Source of the DNA: an uncultured Desulfatiglans sp.
Lineage (GTDB): Bacteria; Desulfobacterota; DSM-4660; Desulfatiglandales; HGW-15
Assembly (NCBI GenBank): GCA_964499695.1
Contig: CAZCMD010000001.1
Coordinates: forward strand, 13,872-77,871
Direction: 5' to 3'
Length of the DNA stretch: 64,000 bases
This document shows, one piece after another, positions 8,137-58,846 of the stretch. The position numbers and the translations under genes are program-made. Under the pieces are notes generated by a model. The model was not told the DNA's origin, made no database searches, and saw only the letters and a list, made by a program, of their open reading frames with translations. The first letter of the stretch is position 1; each line of letters starts with the position of its first letter.

Positions 8137-8396
8137 ATATTACCCCTTTTGGTTGTTTCCCCAATGGTTGTTTAAGGCAAACATCCAACTCTTGGTTTTA
8201 AGTGCCTTTTGTCTATCATTCCAGTGAAACCGGTATCTTTTGGAAATACCATGATAAAGATAAAATGAATTACATCAATATCAATAATTTTTCAAGTCAT
8301 TAAATAGGGCTATTATGCATGTAATCCAACATATTTTTCTTAAATTATGGCCAGTATAAGAGGGGTTTTTCTTAAAAATTTTGAATAATCACAGTC

Positions 8397-8412
8397 TGGC
8401 ATAATTATCGCA
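8397..8412 (+). promoter_or_regulatory. sigma54-type promoter candidate (TGGCAT-N5-TCGCA) upstream of the Hpt/che operon
   Basis: TGGCATAATTATCGCA. GG and GC have the canonical 12-nt offset. Located 74 nt upstream of the ATG at 8486. Confidence 0.45.
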
Positions 8413-8485
8413 TAATAATTCAAAAGTAAAATATATGCATCGTTATAACATTAAAATCTGAAAAGATTTTAGATAGGAGGAATAC

Positions 8486-8812
8486 ATGGATTTTTTAACA
8501 CCCGCTCAAAGGCTTGGGCTTGAACTTGAAGAATATATTGAGCTTATAGGGTTGTTTCTGGAAACAAGCGATACTGATATAACCGGAATGGAGAAGGCCG
8601 CTATAGCTCATGATTATGGGACTCTGATAGAACGTTCCCATTCCTTAAAGGGTTCATCAGGTAATCTTGGTCTTACAGAAATATATGAAAAGGCTAAGCA
8701 GATTGAGATGAATGCCAGAGCCAATAGTCTTGAAGGCTTTGATAATCTGTTATTACTGATAAAACAACATGTTATCAAAATCAAAGAAGCTTTTAACAAG
8801 CAGGGTTCTTGA
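8486..8812 (+). CDS. single-domain Hpt histidine phosphotransfer protein
   Basis: HSLKGSSGNLG phosphotransfer motif, 108 aa, AGGAGG RBS. Confidence 0.8.
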   Translation: MDFLTPAQRLGLELEEYIELIGLFLETSDTDITGMEKAAIAHDYGTLIERSHSLKGSSGNLGLTEIYEKAKQIEMNARANSLEGFDNLLLLIKQHVIKIKEAFNKQGS

Positions 8813-8922
8813 GAAAGGTTGCAGTGTATTTAAATGTCAAAAAAGCGTCGCATTCAGTCAATCGAATGACTGGTAATCTCTGAATTTCTTATTCTGAAAG
8901 CTGTGTAAAACTGGAGGTTTAA

Positions 8923-9225
8923 ATGGTTGAAGGCAGGAAAACAAATAAAAAGACTATCAAGCCGGGTAAGGATATAGCAGGGTCAATTGTTGAGGATCTT
9001 AGAGTGAAACTTTTAAAACTGATCAATCAGGATGTTAGTGAACTGGCAATAGACATGAAGGGCATTAACATGATTGATTCAACAGGTCTGGGGGTATTGA
9101 TAGCCACCAGAAACTCCCTGGACCAGGCTGGCAGATTATTGAGACTTACGAATGTGTCTGAAAATATAATGAGTCTTTTTAAAATGATAGGGATTGACAG
9201 ATATTTAAATACTAACGCTGCATGA
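8923..9225 (+). CDS. STAS-domain protein (anti-sigma-factor antagonist, SpoIIAA/HsbA-like)
   Basis: DMKGINMIDSTGLGVLIAT, the conserved Ser/Thr-Gly region of STAS. 100 aa, GGAGG RBS. Confidence 0.75.
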   Translation: MVEGRKTNKKTIKPGKDIAGSIVEDLRVKLLKLINQDVSELAIDMKGINMIDSTGLGVLIATRNSLDQAGRLLRLTNVSENIMSLFKMIGIDRYLNTNAA

Positions 9226-9308
9226 GCCGGTAATTGCACGCAGTGATTTTAAACATATAGAAATGACAAATGATAGAACCTGTCAGATGTAAAATGGACA
9301 GGGTATAA

Positions 9309-12300
9309 ATGGCGATGGAGGAAATTATGAGTATGCAGGATGACGAGACCTTGAGACTTTATGTCGAAGAATCAATTGAGCATTTGGCAGACATTGAAAA
9401 TGATCTGCTTGCTATTGAAAAGGATGGCGCTGATATCGATGAAGAACTGGTAAACAAGGTATTTCGTGCTGCCCATTCAATAAAGGGTGGCGCCGGGTTT
9501 ATGGGGCTTAACAATATCAAGGAACTCTCCCATAAAATGGAAAATGTCCTGGGTATGATCAGAGAAAGGGAGATGGTGCCAAACCCTGAAATTGTCAATA
9601 TACTCCTGCTTGCATCAGATACACTAAGAAATCTGCTCAATAATGTCGGCGCCAGTAATGAGATGCCCATTGAAGAACATGTTAATGCCCTTGTTGCCCT
9701 TACAACAGGTGCTGTTCCTGAGAAAAAGGCTATAAAAACAGAGCAAAACATAAACCTGATCTTTGATAATGGCAGGATGACTTTTAATATTTCTGCCTCT
9801 GATCTGGCCAATTCCAGAAAAAAGGGACAATACATATATCTGGCAGAGCTGGATCTTGTTCAGGATGTTGAAAAAAAGGGTCTCACCACTATGGATCTAT
9901 TAAAAAGGCTCAGTGAAAGTGGGACGATTCTATCTAATGAGGTCGATGTACAATCGGTTGGTACACTTGAAAAGTACTCAACATCAAGCAAGGTGCCTTT
10001 TCTCGTCCTGTTCGGGACGATACTTGAACCTGAAATGGTAAACGCCCTTTTTGATATTAATGAAGAGAATATTTACCTGCTGGAAGACAATAACAGTTTT
10101 ATAAGGCTTACCGAATATGGCCAACCTCAAGAAACCGCAGAAGTCAAAAAAAGTCATGAGGAAACTCCTGTGATTCAACCTGAAGAAAAGGCTTTTAAAG
10201 AAGATACAACATCATTCTCTTCCCCTGAAACAGGTTCAACTATTGCTGCCAAAGAAACGGATATATCTGCTTCTTCCGCTTCAAAAACCGCTGATACAAG
10301 CCTGAGGGTCAATGTAAGTCTTCTTGATTCCCTGATGACACTTGCCGGAGAACTGGTACTTGGCAGAAATCAGCTCATGCAGTCTATTGGTCAGAAGGAT
10401 ATCAGGGCAATAGAAGGGACCGGTCAGAGGCTGGATCTTATAACATCAGAGATTCAGGAAGCAATCATGATGACAAGGATGCAGCCGATCGGTAATGTAT
10501 TAAACAAATTTCCAAGGGTTGTAAGAGACCTTGCCCGAAATCTGAACAAGGAGGTTAAGCTTACCATTGAAGGCGAAGGGGTTGAACTGGATAAAACAAT
10601 CCTTGAAGCAATCAATGATCCCCTTACACATCTTGTCAGAAATTCAGTTGATCACGGTATAGAACTTCCTGCTGAAAGGCAGAGGGCAGGAAAGGAATCT
10701 GTCGGTCATGTGTTGCTCAAGGCATATCATGAGGCAGGCCAGGTGAATATAGAAATCAGGGATGATGGAAAGGGCATAAATCCCAACAAGCTGACAAAGG
10801 TTGCCCTTGAGAAAAAGGTGATAACCGAAGATCAGGCAATTTCAATGTCTGATAAGGAAAAGATAAATCTGATATTCCTTCCCGGTTTTTCAACAGCGGA
10901 AAAGGTAAGCGATGTATCAGGGCGCGGTGTTGGTATGGACGTTGTTAAAACCAACCTTGATAAGCTTGGTGGTGTTGTGGATGTGGATTCTGCTATCGGT
11001 AAGGGTACAACTATAAAAATCAAACTGCCCCTTACACTGGCAATTATTCCAAGTCAGTTGATAAGTGTTTGCGGTGAAAGATATGCTATACCACAGGTCA
11101 ACCTTGAAGAACTCTTCAGGATACCTGCCAATCAGGTCAAAGACAGGATAGAAAAGGTCGGTGATGCAGAGGTTGTAAGATTAAGAGGAAGCCTTCTTCC
11201 CCTGATCAGGCTTTCCGATGTTATAGGGATTGAAAGAGAATACATTGACACCAGCGAAAAAATCAAAAAATCTGACAGAAGGGAAAGCATTTCTGACAGA
11301 AGAGGGAGAAAAAGTCCTCTTAAAAAGGCTGTAAAGGATGATATCATCCGCGGGATTAATGAGAGCAGCGAAGGATCGGAAGAAAATGATACAGAAGACG
11401 ATTACTCAAACCGGAGAAAAAAATCCACTGACCGAAGATATCATGCTTCCAGTGCGGTAAATATTGTTGTTGTCTATACCGGGGCACTTAAATACGGGCT
11501 TGTTGTGGATATATTACACGATTCCGAAGAAATCGTGGTAAAACCGCTTGGAAGGCATCTCAAACACTGCAAGGCATATGCCGGCGCCACCATAATGGGA
11601 GATGGCCGTGTAGCGCTGATTCTTGATGTTGCAGGAATTTCCAAGATGGCCCGCCTGACTTCAATGGATGGTACTGAGAGGGCTGTGCAGGTTGCCAAGG
11701 AACAGAGGATGAAGAGCCAGAAAGATATCCAGTCTCTGCTTATTTTCAGGAATGCAGAAGACGAACAGTTTGCAGTCCCCTTAGGTCTTGTTGAAAGGGT
11801 TGAGAAGATAAAACGGACTGACATAGAACATGTTGGAGGGAAAAAGGTTATACAGTACAGGGGTGCAAGCCTGCCTTTATTTGCCATAGAACAGGTAGCC
11901 AATGTAAAACCCCTTTCTGACAAGGAAGATCTGCTTGTAATTGTATTTTCTATCGGTGGAAGGGATATAGGTCTTCTCGCTACACCGCCGCTTGATTCAA
12001 CAGAAGAGGCCCTGACAGTAGATGACATGACCCTCAAGCAGACTGGGATCATGGGTTCGGCCATAATAGGGAATCAGACAACCCTCATGATAAATATCTT
12101 CGGGATTGTCGAGGCCCTTAACCCTGACTGGTTTACCAAAAAGGAAACAGTTATGGTTTCTGAAAACAAGGCCGCTACGGTTCTCTATGCTGAGGACTCC
12201 AATTTTTTCAGGGGGCAGGTTACTGAATACCTGAAGGAAGACGGGTATAATGTTATTGAGGCAGAAGATGGTCGAATCGCCCTTGATCTTATTGAAAAAC

Positions 12301-12548
12301 ATATAGATGAAATTTCCCTTGTTATAACTGACATAGAGATGCCCAATATGGATGGCTTTGAGCTTACATCATATATTAAAAAAGATGCAAGATTCAGGCA
12401 TCTCCCTGTGATTGCCCTTACAACAATGGCAAGCGACGAGGATATCCAGAAAGGGAATAAAGTCGGGATAGATGATTATCAGATAAAGTTGGATAAGGAA
12501 AAGCTGATGAAAAGTGTTTTTCAGCATCTCAAGGCAGTTACGAAATAG
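9309..12548 (+). CDS. cheA: hybrid chemotaxis histidine kinase CheA with two CheW-like domains and a C-terminal receiver
   Basis: P1 motif HSIKGGAG. Kinase boxes NSVDHGIE, DDGKGI, GRGVGMD. Two CheW-like segments separated by a charged insert with repeated DRR. REC at the C-terminus (DIEMPNMDG). The start may instead be the ATG at 9327, which has GGAGG 5 nt upstream. Confidence 0.92.
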   Translation: MAMEEIMSMQDDETLRLYVEESIEHLADIENDLLAIEKDGADIDEELVNKVFRAAHSIKGGAGFMGLNNIKELSHKMENVLGMIREREMVPNPEIVNILLLASDTLRNLLNNVGASNEMPIEEHVNALVALTTGAVPEKKAIKTEQNINLIFDNGRMTFNISASDLANSRKKGQYIYLAELDLVQDVEKKGLTTMDLLKRLSESGTILSNEVDVQSVGTLEKYSTSSKVPFLVLFGTILEPEMVNALFDINEENIYLLEDNNSFIRLTEYGQPQETAEVKKSHEETPVIQPEEKAFKEDTTSFSSPETGSTIAAKETDISASSASKTADTSLRVNVSLLDSLMTLAGELVLGRNQLMQSIGQKDIRAIEGTGQRLDLITSEIQEAIMMTRMQPIGNVLNKFPRVVRDLARNLNKEVKLTIEGEGVELDKTILEAINDPLTHLVRNSVDHGIELPAERQRAGKESVGHVLLKAYHEAGQVNIEIRDDGKGINPNKLTKVALEKKVITEDQAISMSDKEKINLIFLPGFSTAEKVSDVSGRGVGMDVVKTNLDKLGGVVDVDSAIGKGTTIKIKLPLTLAIIPSQLISVCGERYAIPQVNLEELFRIPANQVKDRIEKVGDAEVVRLRGSLLPLIRLSDVIGIEREYIDTSEKIKKSDRRESISDRRGRKSPLKKAVKDDIIRGINESSEGSEENDTEDDYSNRRKKSTDRRYHASSAVNIVVVYTGALKYGLVVDILHDSEEIVVKPLGRHLKHCKAYAGATIMGDGRVALILDVAGISKMARLTSMDGTERAVQVAKEQRMKSQKDIQSLLIFRNAEDEQFAVPLGLVERVEKIKRTDIEHVGGKKVIQYRGASLPLFAIEQVANVKPLSDKEDLLVIVFSIGGRDIGLLATPPLDSTEEALTVDDMTLKQTGIMGSAIIGNQTTLMINIFGIVEALNPDWFTKKETVMVSENKAATVLYAEDSNFFRGQVTEYLKEDGYNVIEAEDGRIALDLIEKHIDEISLVITDIEMPNMDGFELTSYIKKDARFRHLPVIALTTMASDEDIQKGNKVGIDDYQIKLDKEKLMKSVFQHLKAVTK

Positions 12549-12626
12549 AAAATAAGCGGATTACAGGTATCCTGAAATCTTTTTAAAAACTATACACCGG
12601 ATTAATGGTGCGGGAGGTAATAATAA

Positions 12627-13100
12627 ATGGCTAACCATGCTGACAATAGAAATGCAGGGAATAAAACAATGGAACTGGCAACATTTTATGTCGGTGATTC
12701 GCTGTGCGGTATGGATATATTAAAGGTCCAGGAGATAAACAAGCTCCTTGAGATGACAGAGGTGCCGCTTGCCCCTGATTATGTAAAGGGAATACTGAAC
12801 CTCAGAGGTCAGATCGTTACTGTCATAGACCTTGGAAACAAACTCAGTCTGGCAGATACGGAGATCTCCAGTGAAACCAGAAACATAATTGTCAACTCAA
12901 ATGGTGAGTATATAGGTCTTCTTGTGCACAGGATAGGAGATGTTGAAAGGACAGAAGAAGATAAAATAGAACCTCCGCCGGCAAATATCGGAGGCATTCA
13001 GGGAAGGTATTTTGAGGGTGTCTTTAAAAAGGAAAAGAGCCTGATCGGCATACTCAATGTGGAAGAGATCCTGAAGGATGACAGCAGTCAGGCCATTTAG
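12627..13100 (+). CDS. cheW: chemotaxis coupling protein CheW
   Basis: FYVGDSLCGMDILKVQEI...YVKGILNLRGQIVTVIDL. 157 aa. Confidence 0.9.
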   Translation: MANHADNRNAGNKTMELATFYVGDSLCGMDILKVQEINKLLEMTEVPLAPDYVKGILNLRGQIVTVIDLGNKLSLADTEISSETRNIIVNSNGEYIGLLVHRIGDVERTEEDKIEPPPANIGGIQGRYFEGVFKKEKSLIGILNVEEILKDDSSQAI

Positions 13101-13167
13101 GAATTAGACAGAGATTGATCCCGGGCTTGATCTTTCAATTGAAAGAAAAAAGGAATTACAGGACTTA

Positions 13168-14292
13168 ATGGAAAAAACTCCCCTCAGAGTGCTTGTGGTC
13201 GACGATACCGTGGTTTATCGTAAGACTGTGAGTGATGTGCTGGCTGAAATACCAGGTGTTGAGGTAGTCGGGACTGCCAATAATGGCAAGATTGCCATGA
13301 TGAAGATAGCCTCCCTGAAGCCAGACCTCATTACCCTTGATATCGAAATGCCTGAGATGAACGGGCTTGATGTGCTGAGGGCGTTAAAAACAGAGGCGCC
13401 TGATGTTGGCGCCATAGTATTAAGCACACTTACTCACAAGGGCGGTGACCTCACCATAAAGGCGCTTGAGCTGGGCGCCTTTGATTATATTACAAAACCG
13501 GAAACCGGAAGTATTGAAGAGAGTAAAAGAACAATAAAAAAGATACTGGATCTTTTGCTCAAGAGTTACTCCAGACATCTGGAGATGAAAAAGATTCTGC
13601 GGGGCGCAGGTTACGGAAAATCATATACTACTGAGGCAGTATCAGGTCAGGCTGATTTAAGGACATCAAGGTACACTTCAGTTTCATCAACAAGATCACA
13701 CAGAAAGGTAAAAGCGGAAATCGTAGGTATTGGAATATCAACCGGAGGTCCAAAGGCATTATCTGAAATGATGCCTATGATTCCTGCTAATATTAATGTG
13801 CCTATATTAATAGTACAGCATATGCCTCCAATGTTTACCGAATCACTTGCGAAAAGTCTCAATGCACGATGTGCCATTGAAGTTAAAGAGGCAGAGGATG
13901 GAGAGATAATCAGACCCAACGTCGCATTTATTGCACCTGGTGGAAGGCAGATGAAGGTAGTTGCAGGCGCTGACGGGTTGAGCAGGATAATCAGGATTAC
14001 GGATGATCCTCCTGAAAATAGCTGCAAGCCTTCTGTGGATTATCTGTTCAGGTCAATTGCCGAGCATTATGTGGGTCGTTCTGCCGGTGTAATAATGACA
14101 GGTATGGGTTCTGACGGCACTCTGGGTTTAAGAGTAATGAAGAAAAATGGTTCATTTATCATTGCGCAGGATGAACCAAGCTGTGTTGTATTTGGTATGC
14201 CGAAAAAGCCTATTGATGAGGGGATTGTTGATATTATCGCACCCCTGGACAGGCTCGCGGATGAGATTTCTAACAGTGTAAAAGCTATATAG
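13168..14292 (+). CDS. cheB: chemotaxis response regulator protein-glutamate methylesterase CheB
   Basis: REC (VLVVDD, DIEMPEMNG) plus the methylesterase domain (GISTGGP, QHMPPMFT, TGMGSDG). Confidence 0.93.
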   Translation: MEKTPLRVLVVDDTVVYRKTVSDVLAEIPGVEVVGTANNGKIAMMKIASLKPDLITLDIEMPEMNGLDVLRALKTEAPDVGAIVLSTLTHKGGDLTIKALELGAFDYITKPETGSIEESKRTIKKILDLLLKSYSRHLEMKKILRGAGYGKSYTTEAVSGQADLRTSRYTSVSSTRSHRKVKAEIVGIGISTGGPKALSEMMPMIPANINVPILIVQHMPPMFTESLAKSLNARCAIEVKEAEDGEIIRPNVAFIAPGGRQMKVVAGADGLSRIIRITDDPPENSCKPSVDYLFRSIAEHYVGRSAGVIMTGMGSDGTLGLRVMKKNGSFIIAQDEPSCVVFGMPKKPIDEGIVDIIAPLDRLADEISNSVKAI

Positions 14293-14314
14293 GAAAAGTG
14301 TTTGTGTATAATTC

Positions 14315-15157
14315 ATGATCAAGATTACTCCAAATGAGATAAAGGTACTTTCAAAATATATCTATGATATTTCAGGGATATTCCTTGATGAGAAAAAGGC
14401 ATATCTTCTTGAAACCAGATTAAAAATGATCATGGATGCAGAGAGGTTTACCTCTTATCAGGAGCTTTATCAGAGGGCAAAATCTGAAAAAAGCGTCCAT
14501 TTGGAAAGAAAGATAATAGATGCAGTGACCACAAATGAGACCCTGTTTTTCAGAGACAAGTCGCCTTTTGAAATGTTCAAGTATAAAGTCATGCCTGACC
14601 TAATAGATAAGCGTGCAGCCCAGAACTCCGGTATGTCACCTATTAATATCCGAATATGGAGTGCAGCCTGCTCCACTGGCCAGGAAATTTACAGTCTTGC
14701 CATTATTTTAAAGGAACTGATCCCTGATCAGAAGAAGTACAAGATCAAGCTTTTAGGTACTGATATCTCGGATGATGCTGTGGCGCAGGCAAGCTATGGC
14801 AAGTATAACAGGTTTGAGATAGAGCGGGGGCTTGAAAAGGATCAACTGCAAAGATATTTTGTTTCAAATGGGAACTCCTGGAAGATCAGGGACGATATAA
14901 GGGCAATGGCGGTCTTTCAGAAACGAAATTTAATGGGACCATTTACCGGGATAGGTCAGTTTGACATTATTTTCTGCCGTAATGTTGCCATATATTTCAG
15001 TATTGATGACAGAAAAAAGCTCTTTGAAAAGATTGCAGGTGTCCTGGCTCCTGACGGATATCTTATCATTGGTTCTACAGAATCATTAACAGGCATATGT
15101 CCGCAGTTTGAGGCACAGAGACATTTGAGGTCAGTATTTTATACAATAAAACAATAA
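14315..15157 (+). CDS. cheR: chemotaxis protein methyltransferase CheR
   Basis: TTNETLFFRD, IWSAACSTGQEIYSLA and FCRNVAIYF. Confidence 0.92.
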   Translation: MIKITPNEIKVLSKYIYDISGIFLDEKKAYLLETRLKMIMDAERFTSYQELYQRAKSEKSVHLERKIIDAVTTNETLFFRDKSPFEMFKYKVMPDLIDKRAAQNSGMSPINIRIWSAACSTGQEIYSLAIILKELIPDQKKYKIKLLGTDISDDAVAQASYGKYNRFEIERGLEKDQLQRYFVSNGNSWKIRDDIRAMAVFQKRNLMGPFTGIGQFDIIFCRNVAIYFSIDDRKKLFEKIAGVLAPDGYLIIGSTESLTGICPQFEAQRHLRSVFYTIKQ

Positions 15158-15190
15158 TCAGGCGGGATCAGGAAAGGAGAAGGATCAACT

Positions 15191-16081
15191 ATGAGACACA
15201 ATAAATCATACATAGTCTGGATGCCTCAAAATGGTTCCGGTAAAACACATCAGATTGTTATAAACCCATGGTATCTCATTGCGCTTATAATAACCTTTGT
15301 GTTATGTGTCGTTTCCATACCATTTTTCCAGCATCATGTTTTTGCGCTTAATAAGAAGATTGTCTTTCTTGAAAACTCCGGCACCAGCATGAAGTTAGAG
15401 ATAGCAAACCTCAGATACCTTAAAGATAACCTGAGACAGATAGAGGAAAAAGACCATCAACTTTCTGAATATTTCGGGCTGGACAGTGACTCAAATGATA
15501 TGGAAGGATTGCCAGGCAAGGGTGGAATATCCGATAATTCCGGATACATTGAACTGGAGAAAAGTCTATTATCTCTGCCTGATAAAAATGGCCTCTCATC
15601 CCATATTAATAACCTTGATGAAAAATTCAGGAAATATTCTGAACTACTTAAGACCCGGGATCAGATTCTTGAGGTCACCCCCAGTATACTTCCTGTTGAA
15701 AAAAACAACATATCACTCTCATCAGGTTTTGGATGGCGTGAAAATCCTTTTACAAAAACAAAAGAATTTCATGCAGCGATAGATATATCAGGGGATAAAG
15801 GTGAAAAGATCTTTGCACCGGCAAGGGGCCTTGTTCTGAAAACAGGTAATGATAAAAGGATCGGTAAATTTATCCTTATCAGGCATACAGATAGAATAAA
15901 GACCTTATTTGGTCATCTGAGCCATATATATGCAGAAGAAGGAAAAGAGGTAAAGCGCGGGGACAGGATCGGTCTTATGGGAAACACCGGGCTATCAACG
16001 GGCAGTCATCTGCACTATATGGTAATAAAAGAGGGCAGGGCAGTTAATCCCCTTGAGTACATACTTGATATGAGTAACTGA
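15191..16081 (+). CDS. membrane-anchored M23 (LytM-type) peptidase
   Basis: N-terminal TM helix, a coiled-coil segment, and the HAAIDISG...GNTGLSTGSHLHY metal-site motifs. Confidence 0.85.
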   Translation: MRHNKSYIVWMPQNGSGKTHQIVINPWYLIALIITFVLCVVSIPFFQHHVFALNKKIVFLENSGTSMKLEIANLRYLKDNLRQIEEKDHQLSEYFGLDSDSNDMEGLPGKGGISDNSGYIELEKSLLSLPDKNGLSSHINNLDEKFRKYSELLKTRDQILEVTPSILPVEKNNISLSSGFGWRENPFTKTKEFHAAIDISGDKGEKIFAPARGLVLKTGNDKRIGKFILIRHTDRIKTLFGHLSHIYAEEGKEVKRGDRIGLMGNTGLSTGSHLHYMVIKEGRAVNPLEYILDMSN

Positions 16082-16083
16082 TT

Positions 16084-16755
16084 ATGAATTATATCTTTCT
16101 TTTAAACAGGAAAAATATTATACCAGTTTCATGTTTGATTATACTCTTCGTATTGGTCTCAGCCCAATTCTCCGGTGCAGCATTAAGAATGGATAAAGAT
16201 GCTGTTTTTTGCAGCTATTTTATGATTAGTGGTAACAAGCCCTCAGAACAGGACATTGAGGAGCTGTGTTTCAACAGTGGCAGGCCTTCATATACTGCCT
16301 TCAAGCCTTCTGAGATGTTTTCAAAAAAGAGCCTGCTGTCCGAGAAAAAAAAGATAGAAAACAGGATAAATGCCATTTCCGGTGACCCTACAATTATTTG
16401 GAGTGTAAGGCTTGATTCCATGGATGCAGCCGGCATTGAGCGTTTTTTCTCTGCTGATGCCATTAATGACAGTATGCCCCGTCCCACTCCCTACATAAGC
16501 GGAAGGATATCTGAAAACGGGCCGAAGTTTATCAGAAAGACTGTGACAGCATTATTTGACAGATCTTCTGCTCAAAAATATGGGAAAGGGGTTGAGGTAT
16601 TAATCAGCCTGCGGCCTGTCAAGTCTGTATATGAGTATGAAAAGAGAAATATTGTTGAACAGGATGTTCTCCTGCCTATCAGATATGTCATTTTTCAACC
16701 AATAAAAGTCCAGATACTTGACGGAAAATTGTTAAACAATCAATTGAACAAATAA
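16084..16755 (+). CDS. secreted hypothetical protein
   Basis: Signal-peptide-like N-terminus (IILFVLVSAQFSGAA). No motif recognised. The start lies 2 nt after the M23 stop. Confidence 0.55.
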   Translation: MNYIFLLNRKNIIPVSCLIILFVLVSAQFSGAALRMDKDAVFCSYFMISGNKPSEQDIEELCFNSGRPSYTAFKPSEMFSKKSLLSEKKKIENRINAISGDPTIIWSVRLDSMDAAGIERFFSADAINDSMPRPTPYISGRISENGPKFIRKTVTALFDRSSAQKYGKGVEVLISLRPVKSVYEYEKRNIVEQDVLLPIRYVIFQPIKVQILDGKLLNNQLNK

Positions 16756-16833
16756 AACGTAATAACAGAATTGCACTTACCGCCTAATATATTGATTTAA
16801 TTGAATATAAAAAAAGGTATATGCCTGCATATT

Positions 16834-16849
16834 TGGTATATATTTTGCT
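16834..16849 (+). promoter_or_regulatory. sigma54-like promoter candidate (TGGTAT-N5-TTGCT) upstream of the cheZ-like gene
   Basis: TGGTATATATTTTGCT with correct GG/GC spacing but a C-to-T change at -24. Located 54 nt upstream of the ATG at 16903. Confidence 0.35.
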
Positions 16850-16902
16850 TTGTAATTAGAAAGATATTTTTTTGTATTGATCATTATGTGGAGGGTATTC
16901 TA

Positions 16903-17991
16903 ATGGGAAATGTGCTAATGGGTGATCTTGATGGCATGACAGAAAGACTTGCCTTTGATACACATGAGATTGAACAGATTATAACAAGGTACAAGGCCAG
17001 GGTTGTCGCAGGAACAGATGACAATGACTATATGGAATATAATGGCAAAATATTTCCGGTAAAGGGAATAAAAGATACGGAAGGATTAAAACCCTACTTT
17101 ATCATTCTGAAGTCGGGTGTTGCATTTAATGCGAGTGATTATCAGATGCTCTTCAATACAGAAGATCTCCCAAACAGCCTGATTTCCGGGATTGATTCTT
17201 CGGGCAAAAAATATCTGTGCCGTCGTTATTTGAATGGAAGCAGGTTAATGGAAACAACCGTTCAAAAGTATACTGCTGGAAATAACCAGAATCTAACCTC
17301 AGATGAGGCTGAAAAACTAAAGGATGTAATAAATAAGCTGAAAAAGGGAGAGTTTTTTGAACTGCTTACAATGGAGTTTTCCGATAAGATTAAGGGAATT
17401 GCCAAGGAACTGATAGATTTTAGAAAAGATATCCAGACCAGGATAGAGCCTGATATAGTGGAAATAGCATCAAAGGATATTCCTGAGGCAAGCAACCAGC
17501 TTGAAGGTATTAATGAAACCCTTGAAGAAAGCACTATGAAGATAATGGATATCAATGAGGCCCAGATGGAGGCTGCTAATACCCATTACAAGCTTCTCGA
17601 TCAGATACTTGCAAAAAACAGTGACGGAGATGGAAATATTTCTATGGGTTTGAGCCTTGAAGAGGCCATAGAGACCATTGAAAACCAGGTCTCTTTCCTG
17701 AAAGAGATGGAACAGCGGTCACTTACCATGATGGAGCCATTGAGTTTTCAGGACCTTGTGGGTCAGCGTATCCAGAGGATTATTAAACTTGTGAGGTCAA
17801 TGGAGGTAAAAATAGAAGAATTGATCGTCTCTTTTGGAATAAAATTAAAGAAATACAAGGAAGACCCCGAAATAACATATGAGGAACTTAATAAAGATGT
17901 CGATGAGTTCATGTATGAACTAAAAGGTCCACAAAGGTCAGGGGAAGGTCTTGATCAAAAGGCCATTGACGATCTCCTAAACAATATGTAA
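16903..17991 (+). CDS. cheZ: CheZ-like CheY-P phosphatase with a long N-terminal extension
   Basis: SFQDLVGQRIQRI matches the CheZ catalytic D/Q motif (E. coli FQDLTGQVIKR). LKGPQ and the C-terminal DQKAIDDLLNNM resemble the CheY-binding tail. Start set at the ATG with GGAGG 8 nt upstream; the track start at 16801 is a TTG. Confidence 0.8.
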   Translation: MGNVLMGDLDGMTERLAFDTHEIEQIITRYKARVVAGTDDNDYMEYNGKIFPVKGIKDTEGLKPYFIILKSGVAFNASDYQMLFNTEDLPNSLISGIDSSGKKYLCRRYLNGSRLMETTVQKYTAGNNQNLTSDEAEKLKDVINKLKKGEFFELLTMEFSDKIKGIAKELIDFRKDIQTRIEPDIVEIASKDIPEASNQLEGINETLEESTMKIMDINEAQMEAANTHYKLLDQILAKNSDGDGNISMGLSLEEAIETIENQVSFLKEMEQRSLTMMEPLSFQDLVGQRIQRIIKLVRSMEVKIEELIVSFGIKLKKYKEDPEITYEELNKDVDEFMYELKGPQRSGEGLDQKAIDDLLNNM

Positions 17992-18010
17992 TCTATAATA
18001 AAAACACAAT

Positions 18011-18032
18011 AAAGCTGGTTTTACAGCTTTTT
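18011..18032 (+). terminator. weak AT-rich hairpin plus T-run after the cheZ-like gene
   Basis: AAAGCTG-gtttta-CAGCTTT followed by TT. Confidence 0.25.
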
Positions 18033-18066
18033 CACAATATAATAGGGAATATATGGAGGAAAAAAT

Positions 18067-18444
18067 ATGGGATTTGATACTTCGATCAAGGTATTAGTGG
18101 TTGATGACTTCGCTACAATGAGAAGAATTGTTAAAGGTGTGCTCAAACAGCTCGGTTTCAATGATATAATCGAGGCCGAAGATGGTAATATGGCTCTCAA
18201 AGAACTGCAAAAAGAAAAGGTTGGTTTGATCGTATCTGACTGGAATATGCCCAACATGACAGGGCTTGACCTCCTTAAGGCAGTAAGGGCAGATGAAAAA
18301 CTTAAAAATACACCTTTCCTGATGGTAACTGCTGAAGGACAGAAGGAAAATGTTGTCCAGGCTGTACAGGCCGGTGTAAGTAATTACATTGTGAAACCCT
18401 TTACCCCTGAAACCTTTAGTGCAAAACTGGAAAAGATATTCTGA
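18067..18444 (+). CDS. cheY: chemotaxis response regulator CheY
   Basis: VLVVDDF...SDWNMPNMTGLDLL...YIVKPF. 125 aa single REC domain, GGAGG RBS. Confidence 0.93.
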   Translation: MGFDTSIKVLVVDDFATMRRIVKGVLKQLGFNDIIEAEDGNMALKELQKEKVGLIVSDWNMPNMTGLDLLKAVRADEKLKNTPFLMVTAEGQKENVVQAVQAGVSNYIVKPFTPETFSAKLEKIF

Positions 18445-18627
18445 TAAGAGAAATATTTTTCCGCTAAAAGGGGAAGATTATTCCTTCTTTACGGCAGAAG
18501 ACAAGATGTTAATTGTAATTAAAAATATAAAAAGAATTAAAGAAATAATATGTAACCTGCTGAATATACAGTATAATTTTCACGCTTATCAATGCTGTGT
18601 ATTAACGGTGTATGATCATCCGGATTA

Positions 18628-18643
18628 TGGCAAGCATATTGCA
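18628..18643 (+). promoter_or_regulatory. sigma54-type promoter (TGGCAA-N5-TTGCA)
   Basis: TGGCAAGCATATTGCA, 105 nt upstream of the ATG at 18748. Confidence 0.55.
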
Positions 18644-18747
18644 ATAGAAAAAGATAATTCATATAAAAGGAGATCATACTATTAAGTATGATTTCTGTTA
18701 AATAGTTAATCGTTGTATGATTATCTGAACCGGAAAAGGAGTTAAAA

Positions 18748-19218
18748 ATGAGAATCGATGAAAGTCAGAGAATACTACTGGAACAGCAGGGGAAGGTAAA
18801 TAAATCCAAAAATAATGAGGCTGGAAGTTTTCAGCAGATTATGGAACAATTGACCGCCCGTCCTGAAACAGGGAGGTCTTTGCCCCTGAATATCAATCCG
18901 GTTCAGATATTAGATGGATCAACAGGCATTATTCCTGTAAATGGAGCTGTATCAGGCTCCAACGAAAAGACCATGCTGCTCGATTCCCTGAAGGATACTG
19001 TTAATCTGATCGATTTTTATGCGGGAAAGCTTGAGGATACCTCTTTTCCGGCAGAAGATCTTTCATCCCTTGTTGATAAGCTCGATGAGAAGCTTACTGA
19101 AATAAAAGGCATGTCATCTATGGAAGGCATATCTGACAAACTTAAGCCTGTGATCTCTGATATTGCCGTTACAATGGGTACAGAGATAGAGCGTTTTCGC
19201 CGGGGTGATTATCTTTAA
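18748..19218 (+). CDS. hypothetical protein (possibly a DUF327/YaaR-like flagellar-associated protein)
   Basis: AAGGAG RBS, 156 aa. The N-terminus (MRIDESQR...SFQQIMEQL) only loosely resembles DUF327 proteins. The function is not supported beyond genomic context. Confidence 0.5.
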   Translation: MRIDESQRILLEQQGKVNKSKNNEAGSFQQIMEQLTARPETGRSLPLNINPVQILDGSTGIIPVNGAVSGSNEKTMLLDSLKDTVNLIDFYAGKLEDTSFPAEDLSSLVDKLDEKLTEIKGMSSMEGISDKLKPVISDIAVTMGTEIERFRRGDYL

Positions 19219-19932
19219 CTATATCGGAAAACAGATAACAATATCTGCTGACTGACCTTTTCCGGTCTTAATGATTATTCCATCAGAGTGAAATATCTTC
19301 AATATCAGCATAATGTCTGATTCATTGTCAGGTGCTGTCAGCCTGTCAGATGAAAAATCTTTTTTCAGCATGTCATTGATTATACTGGCAAGATCATTCA
19401 GCCCGGTAACAATGGTAATCTCATAGAAGCCACCATTTTTTACAGTCCTGATATGAAGTGTGCTTTTCTTATTTCTTTCTATCTCTTCTATAATTCTTTG
19501 AAGCAGCCAGCTAAAAGCCAGAATAGAATTTTCAGGAAGGCCGCTTATAAGAGGCGGCTGATCTCCCAGGTCAAGAGTCGTTTCCACGTTATGTTTGTAA
19601 TATAGATTTGTATTAAAAAATAACAATTCCTGTTCAAGGTAGTCATTGAAATTTAATAAACCGTTATATGTATGCATGATCCTGTTGGATGATGCCTTTA
19701 TTATTGTGTTCAAACGATCAAGCTCTTCTTCTATGCGTCTGAGCCTGGGCAGTATATTGCTCTCGTTACCGCCACCAGCCTCCGCCCCTTTTTTAAGCAT
19801 ATACTGAGTCATCTCAAGGTCAAGGCCGATATTCTGTAGCGGGCCGTTTAAATTGTGTATCAGACCACCAGTTACCTTTCCAAGTGAGGCAAGTTTATAT
19901 AATTCGATAAGGCTGTTAAAGGACAGTTCCAT
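19219..19932 (-). CDS. soluble histidine-kinase-like protein with an intact H-box but a degenerate ATP-binding domain
   Basis: LASLGKVTGGLIHNLNGPLQNI resembles an NtrB/AtoS-type DHp H-box. I could not find N, G1 or G2 boxes in the C-terminal half. No TM or sensor domain. Confidence 0.55.
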   Translation of the reverse strand: MELSFNSLIELYKLASLGKVTGGLIHNLNGPLQNIGLDLEMTQYMLKKGAEAGGGNESNILPRLRRIEEELDRLNTIIKASSNRIMHTYNGLLNFNDYLEQELLFFNTNLYYKHNVETTLDLGDQPPLISGLPENSILAFSWLLQRIIEEIERNKKSTLHIRTVKNGGFYEITIVTGLNDLASIINDMLKKDFSSDRLTAPDNESDIMLILKIFHSDGIIIKTGKGQSADIVICFPI

Positions 19933-19937
19933 AATTA

Positions 19938-20498
19938 TTACTCCTCCGGGTTTTTCCTGTTTCTTATGTCGATCCTCTGCTTCTGGAAAATCATTTTTAC
20001 TATTGAATCGTGGGCATCATCTCTTATACAGACTATCCTTGTCGCATAGATATTTTTATCTTTCTTTTTCGTTACCCTCAGTATTTCTGTAATCAGTTCC
20101 ATATGATACTGAACAACACCGGGCATAATAAGTTCCATTTTTAATAAGGCACCCTCTTTGAATTCTTCTTCTGAGGCAAATTTTAGCCCGGAGGCGCTTA
20201 TCTCCATTATGTTGTCATGCCCTGTACATTGGTCTGCTGGTCTGGATAATATCTGTTCGATTATATAGTCAAGCTTATTATTGAGGAGATTGAGTGCCTG
20301 AAAATATTTTTCATCTTTTGAACCCTTTACTGTTTCCTCCAGAATTGTGTCAATCGGGCTGGGTATGCCGCTCTGTTTAAAAAGGGTATTACCAAAACCA
20401 TTTTTTACCGACTGTATCTCATCCTCTGAAAGTAATTTCCACTTTACAGGGACTGTTATCTCAACCCTGAAATGTTCGCGATTGTTTATTTCTGGCAT
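19938..20498 (-). CDS. PilZ-domain protein with a long insertion between the RxxxR and xSxxG motifs
   Basis: NREHFRV (RxxxR) near the N-terminus and EISASGLKF (D/N-x-S-x-x-G-like) about 95 residues later. The ATG at 20498 has GGAG 9 nt upstream; the track start is a TTG. Confidence 0.55.
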   Translation of the reverse strand: MPEINNREHFRVEITVPVKWKLLSEDEIQSVKNGFGNTLFKQSGIPSPIDTILEETVKGSKDEKYFQALNLLNNKLDYIIEQILSRPADQCTGHDNIMEISASGLKFASEEEFKEGALLKMELIMPGVVQYHMELITEILRVTKKKDKNIYATRIVCIRDDAHDSIVKMIFQKQRIDIRNRKNPEE

Positions 20499-20635
20499 CT
20501 TAACCAACTCCTGAATTTTATTATCTTGTACGGATATAAGGACTTCGGAGTATATTATATTTTTTTAATGAATGAAAAGTAAAAACAGATGTGCTTTAAA
20601 AAGTAATATGGGATAATAATATCTCAGTAGGGTTT

Positions 20636-22141
20636 TCAGACAGCAATACTGATCTGCTCCGGAATGGTATTTTCTGTGAATATCCTGAGTGATACCTCTA
20701 CAACCTCAGGGTCAAATTGTGTGCCTTTATTTCTTATAAGCTCTTCAATACATTTATCAATTGGAATCGCCTTCCTGTATGCCCTGTCGGAACTCATTGC
20801 ATCAAAACTGTCTGCAACAATGAGAATCCTTGATAAAAAGGGAATCTCTTCTGCTGTAAGGCCATCAGGATAACCTTTGCCATCCCATCTTTCATGATGA
20901 TTTCTTATTATTGCGAGTTCATCTTTATCCAGCATAAGTGGAGTAACAATGTTTACCCCTATTAAAGGATGTGTCTTTATCTTGTCATATTCCAGTTCTG
21001 TAAGCCTTGTCTTCTTGTTCAGGATACTGTCATCTATACCAATCTTACCGATATCATGTAGAGGTGCGCACGTCCTTAGCCTGTGCAGATCGTCATCAGA
21101 GCAGCCCATTACCTTTGCTATCTCTAATGCATATTTTGTTACCCGTGAAGAATGCTGACGGGTATATTTATCTTTTGCCTCAATAGCCCCTACCAGGGAC
21201 ATCATTGATGCCATAAGGTTTTGCATAAGGTTGTCATACAGGGCCATGTTTTCTATATTCAGGGCTGTTCTTTCGGCCATAAACCTGAGTATGAACTGAT
21301 CATCAGTATCAAATCCGGTATCACCTGCCTTTTCTCCAAGTAAAAGCAGCCCAAAGGGTTCATTCCTGATATTAAATGGAATTGATAGATAATTGCCATT
21401 GTGATCTGTATCGAGGGTAATATTAAAACATCTTTCAAACAGGCGTTTATTGATCTTCTCCTCTGCCTTTTCGTGACCTGTTGAGATACGGGTTCCAGGG
21501 TCAGCATTATCAAGGCCTTTTTGTGAAAGGAGGATATAATTGCTTGCTTTATCATTATCCCTGATAAGAAAACATGCCTTTTTTGCCTGGCATATCTCTA
21601 TACTTTTATTGAGGATAAACCTGTGCAGATCTTCTGTTCTGTTAATCCTTGAAAGAGAATCAACAATGTCATACATGAGTGTCTGGGACCTGATTCTTTT
21701 CTGGAGTTCAACATTGAGCTTTTCCACCTCCTGCTTTTGTTCCAGCTCCTGGTTTAGCCTCCAGTTGTTTTCCATCAGGGTTTTAAGGCGACTGATCCTT
21801 TCAAGGATGATTTTTATATCCTGAAGACGAAAGGGTTTTACCAGAAAATCCGATGCCCCGCTGCGCATTGCATCGATAACAGTCTCCATTGTAGGATAAC
21901 CGGTCATAATTATTACATTTGTCAGTTGATGATTTTCATGTATGCGCTTGAGCGTTTCAAGGCCGCCAATGCCTGGCATCATGAGATCCATGAAGATATA
22001 GTCAAAGGATTCGCGGTCGATCTCAGCAAGGGCCTTTTCGCCGCTGTCCAGGATGGTGATATTCTTGAAATTGAGATGTTCAAAGAACATGCCCAGTGTC
22101 TCACCGACCATCGGATCATCATCGACAATCATTACACGCAT
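20636..22141 (-). CDS. response regulator with REC, GAF-like and HD-GYP domains (putative c-di-GMP phosphodiesterase)
   Basis: REC (MIVDDD, MDLMMPGIGG, VKPF). HD-GYP (PLHDIGKIGI, HHERWDGKGYPDG). The ATG at 22141 is preferred over the GTG at 22198, which would overlap the upstream gene by 37 nt. Confidence 0.85.
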   Translation of the reverse strand: MRVMIVDDDPMVGETLGMFFEHLNFKNITILDSGEKALAEIDRESFDYIFMDLMMPGIGGLETLKRIHENHQLTNVIIMTGYPTMETVIDAMRSGASDFLVKPFRLQDIKIILERISRLKTLMENNWRLNQELEQKQEVEKLNVELQKRIRSQTLMYDIVDSLSRINRTEDLHRFILNKSIEICQAKKACFLIRDNDKASNYILLSQKGLDNADPGTRISTGHEKAEEKINKRLFERCFNITLDTDHNGNYLSIPFNIRNEPFGLLLLGEKAGDTGFDTDDQFILRFMAERTALNIENMALYDNLMQNLMASMMSLVGAIEAKDKYTRQHSSRVTKYALEIAKVMGCSDDDLHRLRTCAPLHDIGKIGIDDSILNKKTRLTELEYDKIKTHPLIGVNIVTPLMLDKDELAIIRNHHERWDGKGYPDGLTAEEIPFLSRILIVADSFDAMSSDRAYRKAIPIDKCIEELIRNKGTQFDPEVVEVSLRIFTENTIPEQISIAV

Positions 22142-22161
22142 GGTATTAAAATCCTGATCTA

Positions 22162-22824
22162 TTATTGCCCTATGTTGCTGAACAGTTTCGACTTGCACAA
22201 TTCAAATTCCTTTCCTGTCAATAGCCCTCTTTCTTTAAGGTCTGAAATCCGTTCAAGATTGTCCAGTATCGAGGTCTTCACATTAGACACTGTACTTGAA
22301 TAGTAAAAGGGCAGCATACTGCCGGCAATTACCGGTCTATCATCCTCATTAGTATTCTCTTCGGGCTTGTAGCTGTTTATCTCAAGCAGTTTTTTCATCA
22401 TATTCAACTGTTCATAGGCATTTTTCAGATCATCTATGAGTTTTCTGTTTTCCCGTATAAGCCTTATCTTTTCACGGGCATTATTTACAATAATCCTTAT
22501 CTCTTCCAGCTTGAATGGCTTTGTAATATAGTCATATGCACCTTCCCTGATTGCCTGAACAGCGGTTTCAAGGGAGGCAAAACCGGTTATAAGTACGACA
22601 AGACAGTCAGGGTCGATCTTTCTGGTTTCAGTCAGGACCTCCAGTCCATTAGCGCCCGGCATCATAAGGTCTGTAATTATGAGATCAAATTTCTCATTTT
22701 TACATAAATCTATTGCCTTTTTGCCATCATTACAAACAGTTACGTCATTTTCCTGGTCAAAAACAGTTTTCAGGGCAGATAGAAGTGTCCTGTCATCATC
22801 AACAATTAACAGTTTTAGTTTCAT
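22162..22824 (-). CDS. response regulator: REC domain fused to a C-terminal SHOCT-like short domain
   Basis: REC (LLIVDDD, TDLMMPGANG, ITKPF). C-terminal LERISDLKERGLLTGKEFELCKSKLF matches the SHOCT pattern. Confidence 0.75.
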   Translation of the reverse strand: MKLKLLIVDDDRTLLSALKTVFDQENDVTVCNDGKKAIDLCKNEKFDLIITDLMMPGANGLEVLTETRKIDPDCLVVLITGFASLETAVQAIREGAYDYITKPFKLEEIRIIVNNAREKIRLIRENRKLIDDLKNAYEQLNMMKKLLEINSYKPEENTNEDDRPVIAGSMLPFYYSSTVSNVKTSILDNLERISDLKERGLLTGKEFELCKSKLFSNIGQ

Positions 22825-23307: not shown

Positions 23308-23335
23308 TTATCGGCATTAATCCCTTAAGGCTTTA
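23308..23335 (-). promoter_or_regulatory. sigma28 (FliA)-type promoter upstream of flaG paralog 2
   Basis: Reverse strand reads TAAAG-N15-GCCGATAA (TAAA-N16-GCCGATAA), with a perfect -10 element. Confidence 0.55.
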
Positions 23336-27898: not shown

Positions 27899-27926
27899 TT
27901 ATCGGGATAGGCTTGAATAAACTTTA
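27899..27926 (-). promoter_or_regulatory. sigma28 (FliA)-type promoter of fliC
   Basis: Reverse strand reads TAAAGTTT-N12-CCCGATAA, about 145 nt upstream of the fliC ATG. Confidence 0.7.
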
Positions 27927-58830: not shown

Positions 58831-58846
58831 TGCAATATGAGTGCCA
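58831..58846 (-). promoter_or_regulatory. consensus sigma54 promoter in front of galE and the glycosylation island
   Basis: Reverse strand reads TGGCACTCATATTGCA (TGGCAC-N5-TTGCA), about 190 nt upstream of the galE ATG. Confidence 0.7.

Follow-up and report, generated by a model that had tools for sequence, protein, structure and literature searches.

The 64-kb stretch of DNA analysed here (the window; gene coordinates count from its first letter) comes from an uncultured Desulfatiglans sp. and carries a chemotaxis (che) block of ten genes with short spacers on its plus strand (8486-18444). We interpret this locus as a flagellar chemotaxis operon whose retained Hpt and STAS proteins form a second, partner-switch output, a joint reading that we regard as reasonably probable. 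Because the operon keeps the Hpt and STAS of a module that is complete in related genomes, the same kinase probably feeds this second, non-motor output. Calls of open reading frames (ORFs), together with Pfam and NCBIfam matches, give the gene order hpt, stas, cheA (P1-P3-P4-P5-CheW-REC), cheW, cheB, cheR, an M23 peptidase gene, orf223, cheZ and cheY. This agrees with the gene content and order, from Hpt to CheY, of an initial annotation made from the sequence alone.

Che clusters with genes for an antagonist of anti-sigma factors as well as for a serine phosphatase were already known (ancestral F7; Shewanella Che1 with CrsR/CrsA), as was CheS of alpha-proteobacteria. What is new here is the association of a CheA-CheW-REC kinase with an HptB-like Hpt, a STAS protein whose kinase and phosphatase are missing, and a cheZ-cheY pair under a separate, predicted sigma54 promoter. 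This architecture is not described in the papers on classes F8 and F9 that were consulted. Genome annotation can treat the locus as an unremarkable flagellar chemotaxis operon, sigma54-dependent and with some additional genes.

The che operon and its predicted motor output

The last gene of the operon encodes CheY (18067-18444, plus strand), a motor-type response regulator that shares 60% of its residues with E. coli CheY across 122 amino acids and scores 166 bits with the NCBIfam CheY model. Equivalents of D12, D13, D57, T87, Y106 and K109 are visible in its sequence. The CheZ phosphatase gene precedes it (16903-17991, plus strand; 362 amino acids from the ATG at 16903). Its Pfam CheZ match, located at residues 203-395 of a longer ORF discussed below, reaches 45.6 bits, where the cutoff is 30.7, and covers the C-terminal half only. 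An FQDLVGQ motif aligns with FQDLTGQ of E. coli CheZ (D143/Q147), and the CheY-binding C-terminal peptide of that protein has its counterpart in DDLLNNM. The N-terminal extension of about 165 amino acids has no family match. Given the identity of CheY to its E. coli counterpart, the catalytic Asp/Gln and CheY-binding peptide of CheZ, and the flagellar filament genes and sigma28 promoters that adjoin the operon, we predict with high confidence that motor control is the main output. The suggestion in the initial annotation of an output "rather than pure motor control" was thus overstated.

CheA (9309-12548, plus strand; 1079 amino acids) is a hybrid kinase with the architecture P1(Hpt)-linker-P3-P4-P5(insert)-CheW-like-REC, supported by matches to Pfam Hpt, H-kinase_dim, HATPase_c and CheW. 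Its core is 37% identical to E. coli CheA. The P1 motif is HSIKGG, P5 is interrupted by a charged insert of about 70 amino acids, a second CheW-like domain spans approximately residues 825-945, and the REC domain (958-1070) has its acceptor Asp in VITDIEMPNMDG. The genes that follow, likewise on the plus strand, encode CheW (12627-13100; Pfam CheW, E = 3e-33), CheB (13168-14292; REC and methylesterase domains by Pfam; 37% identical to E. coli CheB) and CheR (14315-15157; Pfam CheR_N and CheR).

We compared 80 loci (designated L002 and so on) from a genome scan with CheA, mapping the window proteins by tblastn and running iterated hidden Markov model (HMM) searches on six-frame ORFs. The nearest CheA relatives (72-90% identity) occur in metagenome-assembled genomes (MAGs) of Desulfatiglans and Desulfatiglandales, and farther ones (44-63%) in Desulfobacterales, Desulfobulbales, Desulfovibrionales, Syntrophobacteraceae and Planctomycetota. 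The core common to all loci consists of cheA(REC), an optional gene for a methyl-accepting chemotaxis protein (MCP), cheW, cheB and cheR.

A tblastn search of the 64 kb with the Tsr/Tar core revealed no MCP signalling domain, although the identical query detects 34 MCP ORFs in the related loci. None of the operon proteins matched CheC, CheD or CheV, so all four absences noted initially stand. The receptors must therefore be encoded elsewhere. Clusters outside the Desulfatiglans clade have one or two MCP genes between cheA and cheW. Receptor genes are missing from F6 clusters too (PMC7184735), and the MCP-less state of the che operon is ordinary. In the MCPs of related clusters (e.g. L007 13271-15310), the C-terminus lies exactly 147 residues, or 21 heptads, past the hairpin-tip Glu, compared to 126 amino acids (18 heptads) in E. 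coli Tar, and most of these proteins have F-(K/T/R)-(V/I/L), or a slight variation of it, as their last residues. Heptad class 34H is tied to F8, 36H to F7 and 40H to F6 (PMC7184735 among the sources). The arm of 147 amino acids, by our own count and not by a published classifier, argues against 34H, 36H and 40H.

The ten genes are predicted to form two transcription units with sigma54-type promoters, one running from hpt through stas, cheA, cheW, cheB, cheR and the M23 gene to orf223, and the other comprising cheZ and cheY. The sigma54-type pattern has four matches in the window, compared to 0.55 expected. The -24/-12 promoter before hpt (TGGCATAATTATCGCA, 8397-8412, plus strand) had been recognized earlier and gains support from conservation: in an alignment of seven loci (the window, L002, L003, L004, L005, L006 and L064), its core CTGGCATNNNTATCGCA is invariant while the flanks diverge. 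The second promoter, TGGTATATATTTTGCT (16834-16849, plus strand), lies before cheZ and is kept in L002, L003, L004 and L006. It sits within an over-long ORF called from a TTG at 16801. Given this position, and given that CheZ orthologues have 362-369 amino acids, cheZ most plausibly starts at the ATG at 16903 and not at 16801. The conserved element and the revised start together suggest that cheZ-cheY has a sigma54 promoter of its own.

Two further DNA elements are conserved in the seven loci. One is bipartite (ATTACATCAAT ... TTTCAAGTNATTAAA, 8269-8304, plus strand), lies about 100-130 bp upstream of the hpt promoter and is preserved in the alignment while neighboring DNA diverges. It is a possible binding site for an enhancer-binding protein. 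The other (ATGTCAAAAAAGCGTCGCATTCAGTCAATCGAATGACTG / ATGTCAAAAAAGCGTCGCATTCAGTCAAYNGAATGACTG, 8834-8872, plus strand) is an element of about 40 nt between hpt and stas that contains the inverted repeat CAGTCA-N6-TGACTG. It is nearly invariant in the seven loci and present in one copy in the window. An RNA motif was considered for this element and ruled out: there is no Rfam match, the folding z-score is -0.57, and no covariation is seen, the arms being invariant. We predict that it is probably a DNA-binding site. In L003-L006 the element is located upstream of an extra sigma54 promoter before stas. The window, L002 and L064 do not have that promoter.

The Hpt and STAS proteins and their module in related loci

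The stand-alone Hpt (8486-8812, plus strand; 108 amino acids; PF01627, E = 5e-13) carries His52 in the motif HSLKGSS, and this residue is invariant in nine homologues. The nearest solved structure is 7c1i (116 amino acids), which we take to be P. aeruginosa HptB, and several homologues are named HptB by JGI. An origin as a recent duplicate of CheA P1 was ruled out, as the identity to P1 of its own CheA is 30% over 70 amino acids.

The STAS protein (8923-9225, plus strand; 100 amino acids; Pfam STAS (PF01740) and STAS_2) is a single-domain protein of the RsbV/SpoIIAA type with Ser53 in MIDSTGLGV. Its best solved relative is RsbV (6m36), whose DSTGLGV motif is identical. The phosphorylatable Ser is retained in 34 of 36 single-domain STAS orthologues. 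Relative to L002, Hpt has a dN/dS of 0.157 and STAS one of 0.146, compared to 0.07-0.09 for the core Che proteins and 0.012 for CheY. The values for Hpt and STAS, along with the conserved His52 and Ser53, show that both proteins are maintained by purifying selection.

Sixty-seven of the loci have enough upstream sequence to be informative about STAS. A single-domain STAS gene lies upstream of cheA in 35 of these, ending a median of 81 bp before cheA (83 bp in the window). A fusion of a CheY-like REC domain to STAS takes this position in 11 Desulfobacteraceae loci, and 21 loci, mostly Desulfobulbales, have neither. The fusion proteins (L010-L022, e.g. L010 9050-9796) are 248 amino acids long and have lost the phosphorylatable Ser. 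The form in L021 is that of Desulfatitalea alkaliphila, a cultivable relative. Derivation of the fusions by simple deletion from REC-[PP2C-RsbW]-STAS is unsupported, since their REC resembles Desulfatiglans CheY (42%) more closely than it does the receiver of REC-PP2C (35-39%).

Pfam and HMM searches show that, in 11-14 loci, genes for a REC-SpoIIE/PP2C phosphatase (369-459 amino acids) and an RsbW-type kinase of the HATPase_c_2 family (133-166 amino acids) directly precede the STAS gene. Full modules of this kind are found in Planctomycetota, Desulfobulbaceae/Desulfurivibrionaceae and Desulfonauticus, as well as in two Syntrophobacteraceae-like loci, L007 and L008. In a neighbor-joining tree of CheA, they are present on both sides of the midpoint root, and L007 and L008 form the sister group of the Desulfatiglans clade. 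Distances among the STAS, RsbW-like and REC-PP2C proteins correlate with CheA distances (r = 0.71, 0.74 and 0.86, respectively; permutation p = 0.0005). This fits co-inheritance with CheA, and shared species phylogeny contributes to the correlation.

REC-PP2C and the RsbW-type kinase are encoded within the operon in L085, L007, L056, L074 and others. L085 shares the upstream synteny of the window, i.e. genes for an iron-containing alcohol dehydrogenase (Fe-ADH), DegT, NAD synthase (NadE) and IlvD. Its operon reads hpt, REC-PP2C, rsbW-like, stas, cheA-REC, cheW, cheB, cheR, REC191, a 93-amino-acid ORF and cheZ. L005 has hpt, an rsbW-like gene whose start overlaps the hpt stop, stas and cheA. 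In L083 the operon is like that of the window without the M23 gene and orf223, and REC-PP2C and rsbW-like genes lie on the opposite strand, roughly 9 kb upstream and past rmlC. Judged against these relatives, the window is a reduced form of the partner-switch module that keeps Hpt and STAS. The loci constitute a natural dissection series in one synteny block, comprising the full module, kinase only, a relocated module, Hpt plus STAS (the window), the REC-STAS fusion and no module. The series points to proteins that merit phosphotransfer and binding assays. The initial annotation had proposed a phosphorelay or partner-switch output for Hpt and STAS. That general idea gains comparative support from the REC-PP2C and rsbW genes before stas, from L085 and from the RsbV-like Ser, but the specific targets it named do not.

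A profile made from nine Hpt orthologues found 1244 relatives, and we read the contigs of selected matches. Members of the subfamily adjoin REC-PP2C in two loci, L085 and L073 (Phycisphaerae). In L084 a member is near another CheA-REC, in L089 one is near hybrid kinases and an rsbW/STAS pair, and in L087 a 44%-identical Hpt has PilZ, a hybrid kinase, MotAB and REC-HD-GYP as neighbors. L056, from a Desulfobulbaceae MAG, has a convergent operon (13831-20945, minus strand) encoding Hpt, HDOD, a hybrid histidine kinase, CheB, CheR, PilZ and HEAT-REC. This operon neighbors REC-PP2C, RsbW, STAS, CheA and CheW, such that the CheB and CheR genes stand apart from cheA and are grouped with a second kinase.

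Possible roles of Hpt and STAS

Under the mechanism we propose, receptors encoded elsewhere would control CheA, as expected from knowledge of the family. CheA-P1 would phosphorylate CheY, which would act on the motor, as well as CheB, which would serve adaptation together with CheR, and CheZ would dephosphorylate CheY-P. The CheA-CheW-REC family is widespread in Desulfobacterota, Planctomycetota and other phyla, and its inherited companion would be a REC-PP2C, RsbW-like Ser kinase and STAS antagonist encoded directly upstream of cheA. In the Desulfatiglans lineage, an HptB-like Hpt would have been added at the 5′ end of the operon and cheZ-cheY, which is missing in other clades, at the 3′ end. 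The phosphatase and kinase genes would then have been lost from the operon in this lineage. In the second branch, phosphate would pass from CheA-REC to Hpt and from Hpt to an unlinked REC-PP2C. The opposing actions of this phosphatase and of an unlinked RsbW-like kinase would set the phosphorylation of STAS Ser53, and the state of STAS would decide its binding partner. The simplest and most likely reading of this branch, by analogy, is the logic of HptB-HsbR-HsbA with CheA-REC as the donor.

The HptB-HsbR-HsbA system of P. aeruginosa (PMC5085249) likewise combines an HptB-like Hpt, an RsbV-type STAS Ser, kinases with a C-terminal receiver and a flagellar/chemotaxis neighborhood. It also shares REC-PP2C and an RsbW-type Ser kinase with the relatives of the window. 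The two differ in several respects. Orphan hybrid sensor kinases are the donors in P. aeruginosa, whereas the presumed donor here is the CheA-REC of the same operon. HsbR fuses REC, PP2C and kinase, while the phosphatase and kinase are separate genes in the relatives and both are missing in the window. In addition, HptB-HsbR-HsbA has a FlgM/HsbD-like partner, and none was identified here.

A number of observations weigh against the proposed partner-switch branch. The 64-kb window encodes no RsbW-like Ser kinase and no PP2C, so the branch depends on unseen genes. As the window begins inside rmlC, the position that REC-PP2C occupies in L083 falls outside it. L006 and L064 have nothing PP2C-like at this position near rmlC. 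A metagenome scan with RmlA, in search of DNA beyond the left edge of the window, recovered only relatives of at most 71% identity. No FlgM, anti-sigma or sigma factor was recognized among the approximately 50 window ORFs that were scanned, so the action of STAS on FlgM/sigma28 that had been suggested is unsupported and this link is speculative. Many relatives have REC-PP2C without any Hpt, such that CheA-P1 may phosphorylate REC-PP2C directly and Hpt may serve another kinase. For the same reason, the generalization that hybrid kinases need a separate Hpt transfers poorly to CheA, which has its own Hpt, P1. The loss of hpt in L003 implies that Hpt is dispensable in at least one lineage. The Hpt subfamily occurs in L056 with a separate hybrid kinase, HDOD, CheB/R, PilZ and HEAT-REC. 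Finally, a hybrid kinase in the window (59031-61706) may be an alternative phosphodonor for the Hpt at 8486.

CheA is fused to a C-terminal receiver in CheAY of Helicobacter/Campylobacter (class F3), in Wsp and in Frz, and F3 also has a divergent CheZ. These systems differ from the present one in having no Hpt, STAS or second CheW-like domain, and F3 uses CheV. RsbY of B. cereus is a REC-PP2C phosphatase. The RsbK-RsbM-RsbY system of this organism (PMC4574943) likewise has a hybrid kinase with a C-terminal REC that is modulated by methylation and, through RsbY, drives an RsbV/RsbW switch. However, RsbK is a classical sensor kinase with no motor output, and not a CheA with CheW, CheB and receptors. 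STAS genes are part of the gene orders of some F classes in Campylobacterota, and cheZY is reported to have been incorporated into a foreign class in Arcobacter (PMC9239204).

Genes for an antagonist and a Ser phosphatase occur in stage 1 and 2 F7 Che clusters of Vibrio, Pseudomonas and Shewanella (PMC7184735), and the Che1 cluster of Shewanella carries CrsR/CrsA (PMC9855816). The ancestral F7 system has a similar history, in that a non-motor system later acquired cheY/cheZ and took over the motor (PMC7184735, PMC9855816). By contrast, the lineage and architecture here are others: CheA has one more CheW-like domain as well as a REC, CheD is absent, the gain of cheZ-cheY is deduced only from its absence in other clades, and the cluster receptors of the window's relatives have 21-heptad arms, not 36H. 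The locus may be a second example of a Che switch from regulatory to motor output.

An alternative explanation, which is possible but rather unlikely in our view, is that STAS binds CheA and tunes its phosphotransfer or dephosphorylation, while CheA-REC and Hpt act as phosphate sinks or buffers and the motor is the only output. CheA-REC domains are phosphate sinks in Helicobacter. STAS adjoins cheA in 35 loci with or without rsbW/PP2C, e.g. in all Desulfovibrionales loci, and the lack of a STAS kinase or phosphatase in the window would be expected. There is also a precedent in CheS, a single-domain STAS protein of che operons that forms a CheA/CheS complex (PMC12654446). In Sinorhizobium meliloti and Agrobacterium fabrum, its gene is likewise located near cheA (PMC12654446), but the system is CheZ-less with two CheYs and no PP2C/RsbW link is described there; CheS is likened to our STAS by domain content and gene context. 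Set against this explanation is Ser53, which is kept in nearly all orthologues, within the same DSTGLGV motif that RsbV has, and makes little sense without a Ser kinase. Moreover, the ancestral context of the family is the full PP2C/RsbW module, and the operon here has CheZ and one CheY.

The initial annotation suggested a route from CheA-REC via Hpt to a REC-HD-GYP protein and/or a 220-amino-acid REC protein (REC220), whose genes lie 2-4 kb downstream. We consider this route, which would couple chemosensing to c-di-GMP turnover and PilZ, unlikely. REC-HD-GYP (20636-22198, minus strand; Pfam Response_reg and HD_5) has the architecture REC-(GAF-like)-HD-GYP with intact PLHDIGK and HHERWDGKGYP motifs, and its true start is probably Met20, at 22141. 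REC220 (22162-22824, minus strand) matches only Response_reg in Pfam and has a coiled-coil C-terminal region. The SHOCT domain previously assigned to its C-terminus has no Pfam match at E<=1. The PilZ-domain protein (19938-20507, minus strand; Pfam PilZ, E = 5e-5) is always paired with a gene for a protein with a histidine-kinase (HK) fold, described below. The block of PilZ, REC-HD-GYP and REC220 is syntenic with the che operon across the Desulfatiglans clade, the 44%-identical Hpt of L087 lies beside similar genes, and the two REC domains are the nearest relatives in the window of a REC of about 190 amino acids that ends the che operon elsewhere. All this is consistent with the route but gives no direct support. 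The regulators belong to a separate, predicted sigma28-type operon that has its own HK-fold protein with a conserved His. L091 keeps the pair of PilZ and HK-fold genes by cheZ-cheY without either regulator, L003 retains the regulators though hpt is lost, and the receiver adjacent to Hpt in relatives, where there is one, is REC-PP2C. We also considered REC220 as a relocated orthologue of the ~190-amino-acid REC after cheR in relatives. This was ruled out: the two are paralogues, and L090 has both.

It is very improbable that Hpt and STAS are functionless, decaying leftovers of the lost module: although the operon no longer has the kinase and phosphatase genes, hpt is deleted in L003 and both proteins evolve at roughly double the rate of the core Che proteins, their ORFs are intact in every locus with dN/dS near 0.15 at dS 0.55-0.86, the catalytic His and Ser are conserved, and hpt and stas come first after a conserved promoter.

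The predicted sigma28 operon and other neighboring features

The sigma28-type pattern (TAAAG-N-CCGATAA) has two matches in the window, compared to 0.07 expected. They lie on the minus strand before the flagellin gene (27899-27926) and before flaG (23308-23335; TAAAGCCT-N12-GCCGATAA), and correspond to the sigma28 promoters that had been noted for these two genes. The latter promoter probably drives a predicted operon of flaG, REC220, REC-HD-GYP, PilZ and the HK-fold gene, with gene spacings of 5-128 nt.

The HK-fold protein (19219-19932, minus strand; 237 amino acids) is encoded by the last gene of this operon, which is convergent with the che genes. Neither Pfam nor NCBIfam matches it. The family to which it belongs has 51 clusters, all of about 240 amino acids, and none of the 51 has any Pfam match, including to HATPase_c or HisKA. 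An AlphaFold2 model based on 23 sequences has a pLDDT of 84 and a pTM of 0.79. In Foldseek searches, the model matches HK cores (DesK, HK853, WalK and others) with E-values near 1e-8, and the best TM-scores (0.48-0.54) are to ChpT (4fpp, 4qpk). His26, in the motif GGLIHNxNGPLQN, is invariant in the 23 sequences. With hhalign, it aligns to the H-box His of the genuine hybrid kinase of the window and nothing else aligns. The ATP-binding boxes (N, G1, G2) are not recognizable.

In the loci seen, the family is always beside cheZ-cheY, paired with PilZ and convergent with cheZ, cheY and orf156. This holds even for distant members with 38-40% identity (L090 10001-10744 and L091 10001-10741). Like ChpT/Spo0B (4fpp, 4qpk), the HK-fold protein has a predicted DHp and CA-like fold, a conserved His and no recognizable ATP-binding motifs. 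Unlike them, it is encoded with PilZ by cheZ-cheY, and it has no detectable sequence similarity to them. Based on the model, the protein may act as a phosphotransferase of the ChpT type, or else as a divergent kinase or as a phosphatase. The family is previously undescribed and is the most original item of the locus, and, as an HK-fold family without a Pfam match, it is a concrete new target.

A combined scheme would give one CheA-REC three outputs: the motor through CheY/CheZ; a STAS switch, acting on gene expression or another target, through Hpt and an unlinked REC-PP2C; and REC-HD-GYP/REC220, to which the HK-fold protein would pass phosphate from CheA-REC or CheY-P. We regard this scheme as doubtful. 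If it were true, chemosensing would be linked to c-di-GMP and PilZ through the HK-fold family, and the Desulfatiglans lineage would have the second independent partner-switch-coupled Che system repurposed for the motor, after F7, with intermediates still extant.

Between cheR and cheZ lies a lineage-specific joint insertion (15191-16755) of two genes on the plus strand. The first (15191-16081) encodes a membrane-anchored M23 (LytM-type) peptidase (Pfam Peptidase_M23) with intact HxxxD and HxH motifs and a dN/dS of 0.19. The second, orf223 (16084-16755), encodes 223 amino acids with a hydrophobic N-terminal segment and no Pfam or NCBIfam match, and has a dN/dS of 0.20. The pair is present in L002, L003, L006 and L090 and absent in L004 and L083. 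The C-terminal ~85 amino acids of orf223 are homologous to the 93-amino-acid ORF before cheZ in L085.

Downstream of cheY, orf156 (18748-19218, plus strand) has no family match, and its position is kept even in the distant loci L090 and L091. In L090, small ORFs between cheY and orf159 (11512-12903, minus strand) match fragments of CheA and CheD and have no counterpart in the window. They resemble pseudogene remnants left by a different che cluster.

Elsewhere in the window lie genes for FliS, FliD and flagellin, a large glycosylation island and the gene for the hybrid kinase mentioned above. The island, of about 30 kb, adjoins the flagellin gene (28062-58642, minus strand) and contains glycosyltransferases of families GT2 and GT4, methyltransferases, sugar-nucleotide enzymes and a multidomain glycosyltransferase-methyltransferase of 1282 amino acids. 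It probably serves flagellin glycosylation. A sigma54-type element (58831-58846, minus strand) occurs before the epimerase gene at 58642. The hybrid sensor kinase (59031-61706, minus strand) has the architecture dCache-HAMP-PAS-HisKA-HATPase-REC and would likewise need an Hpt.

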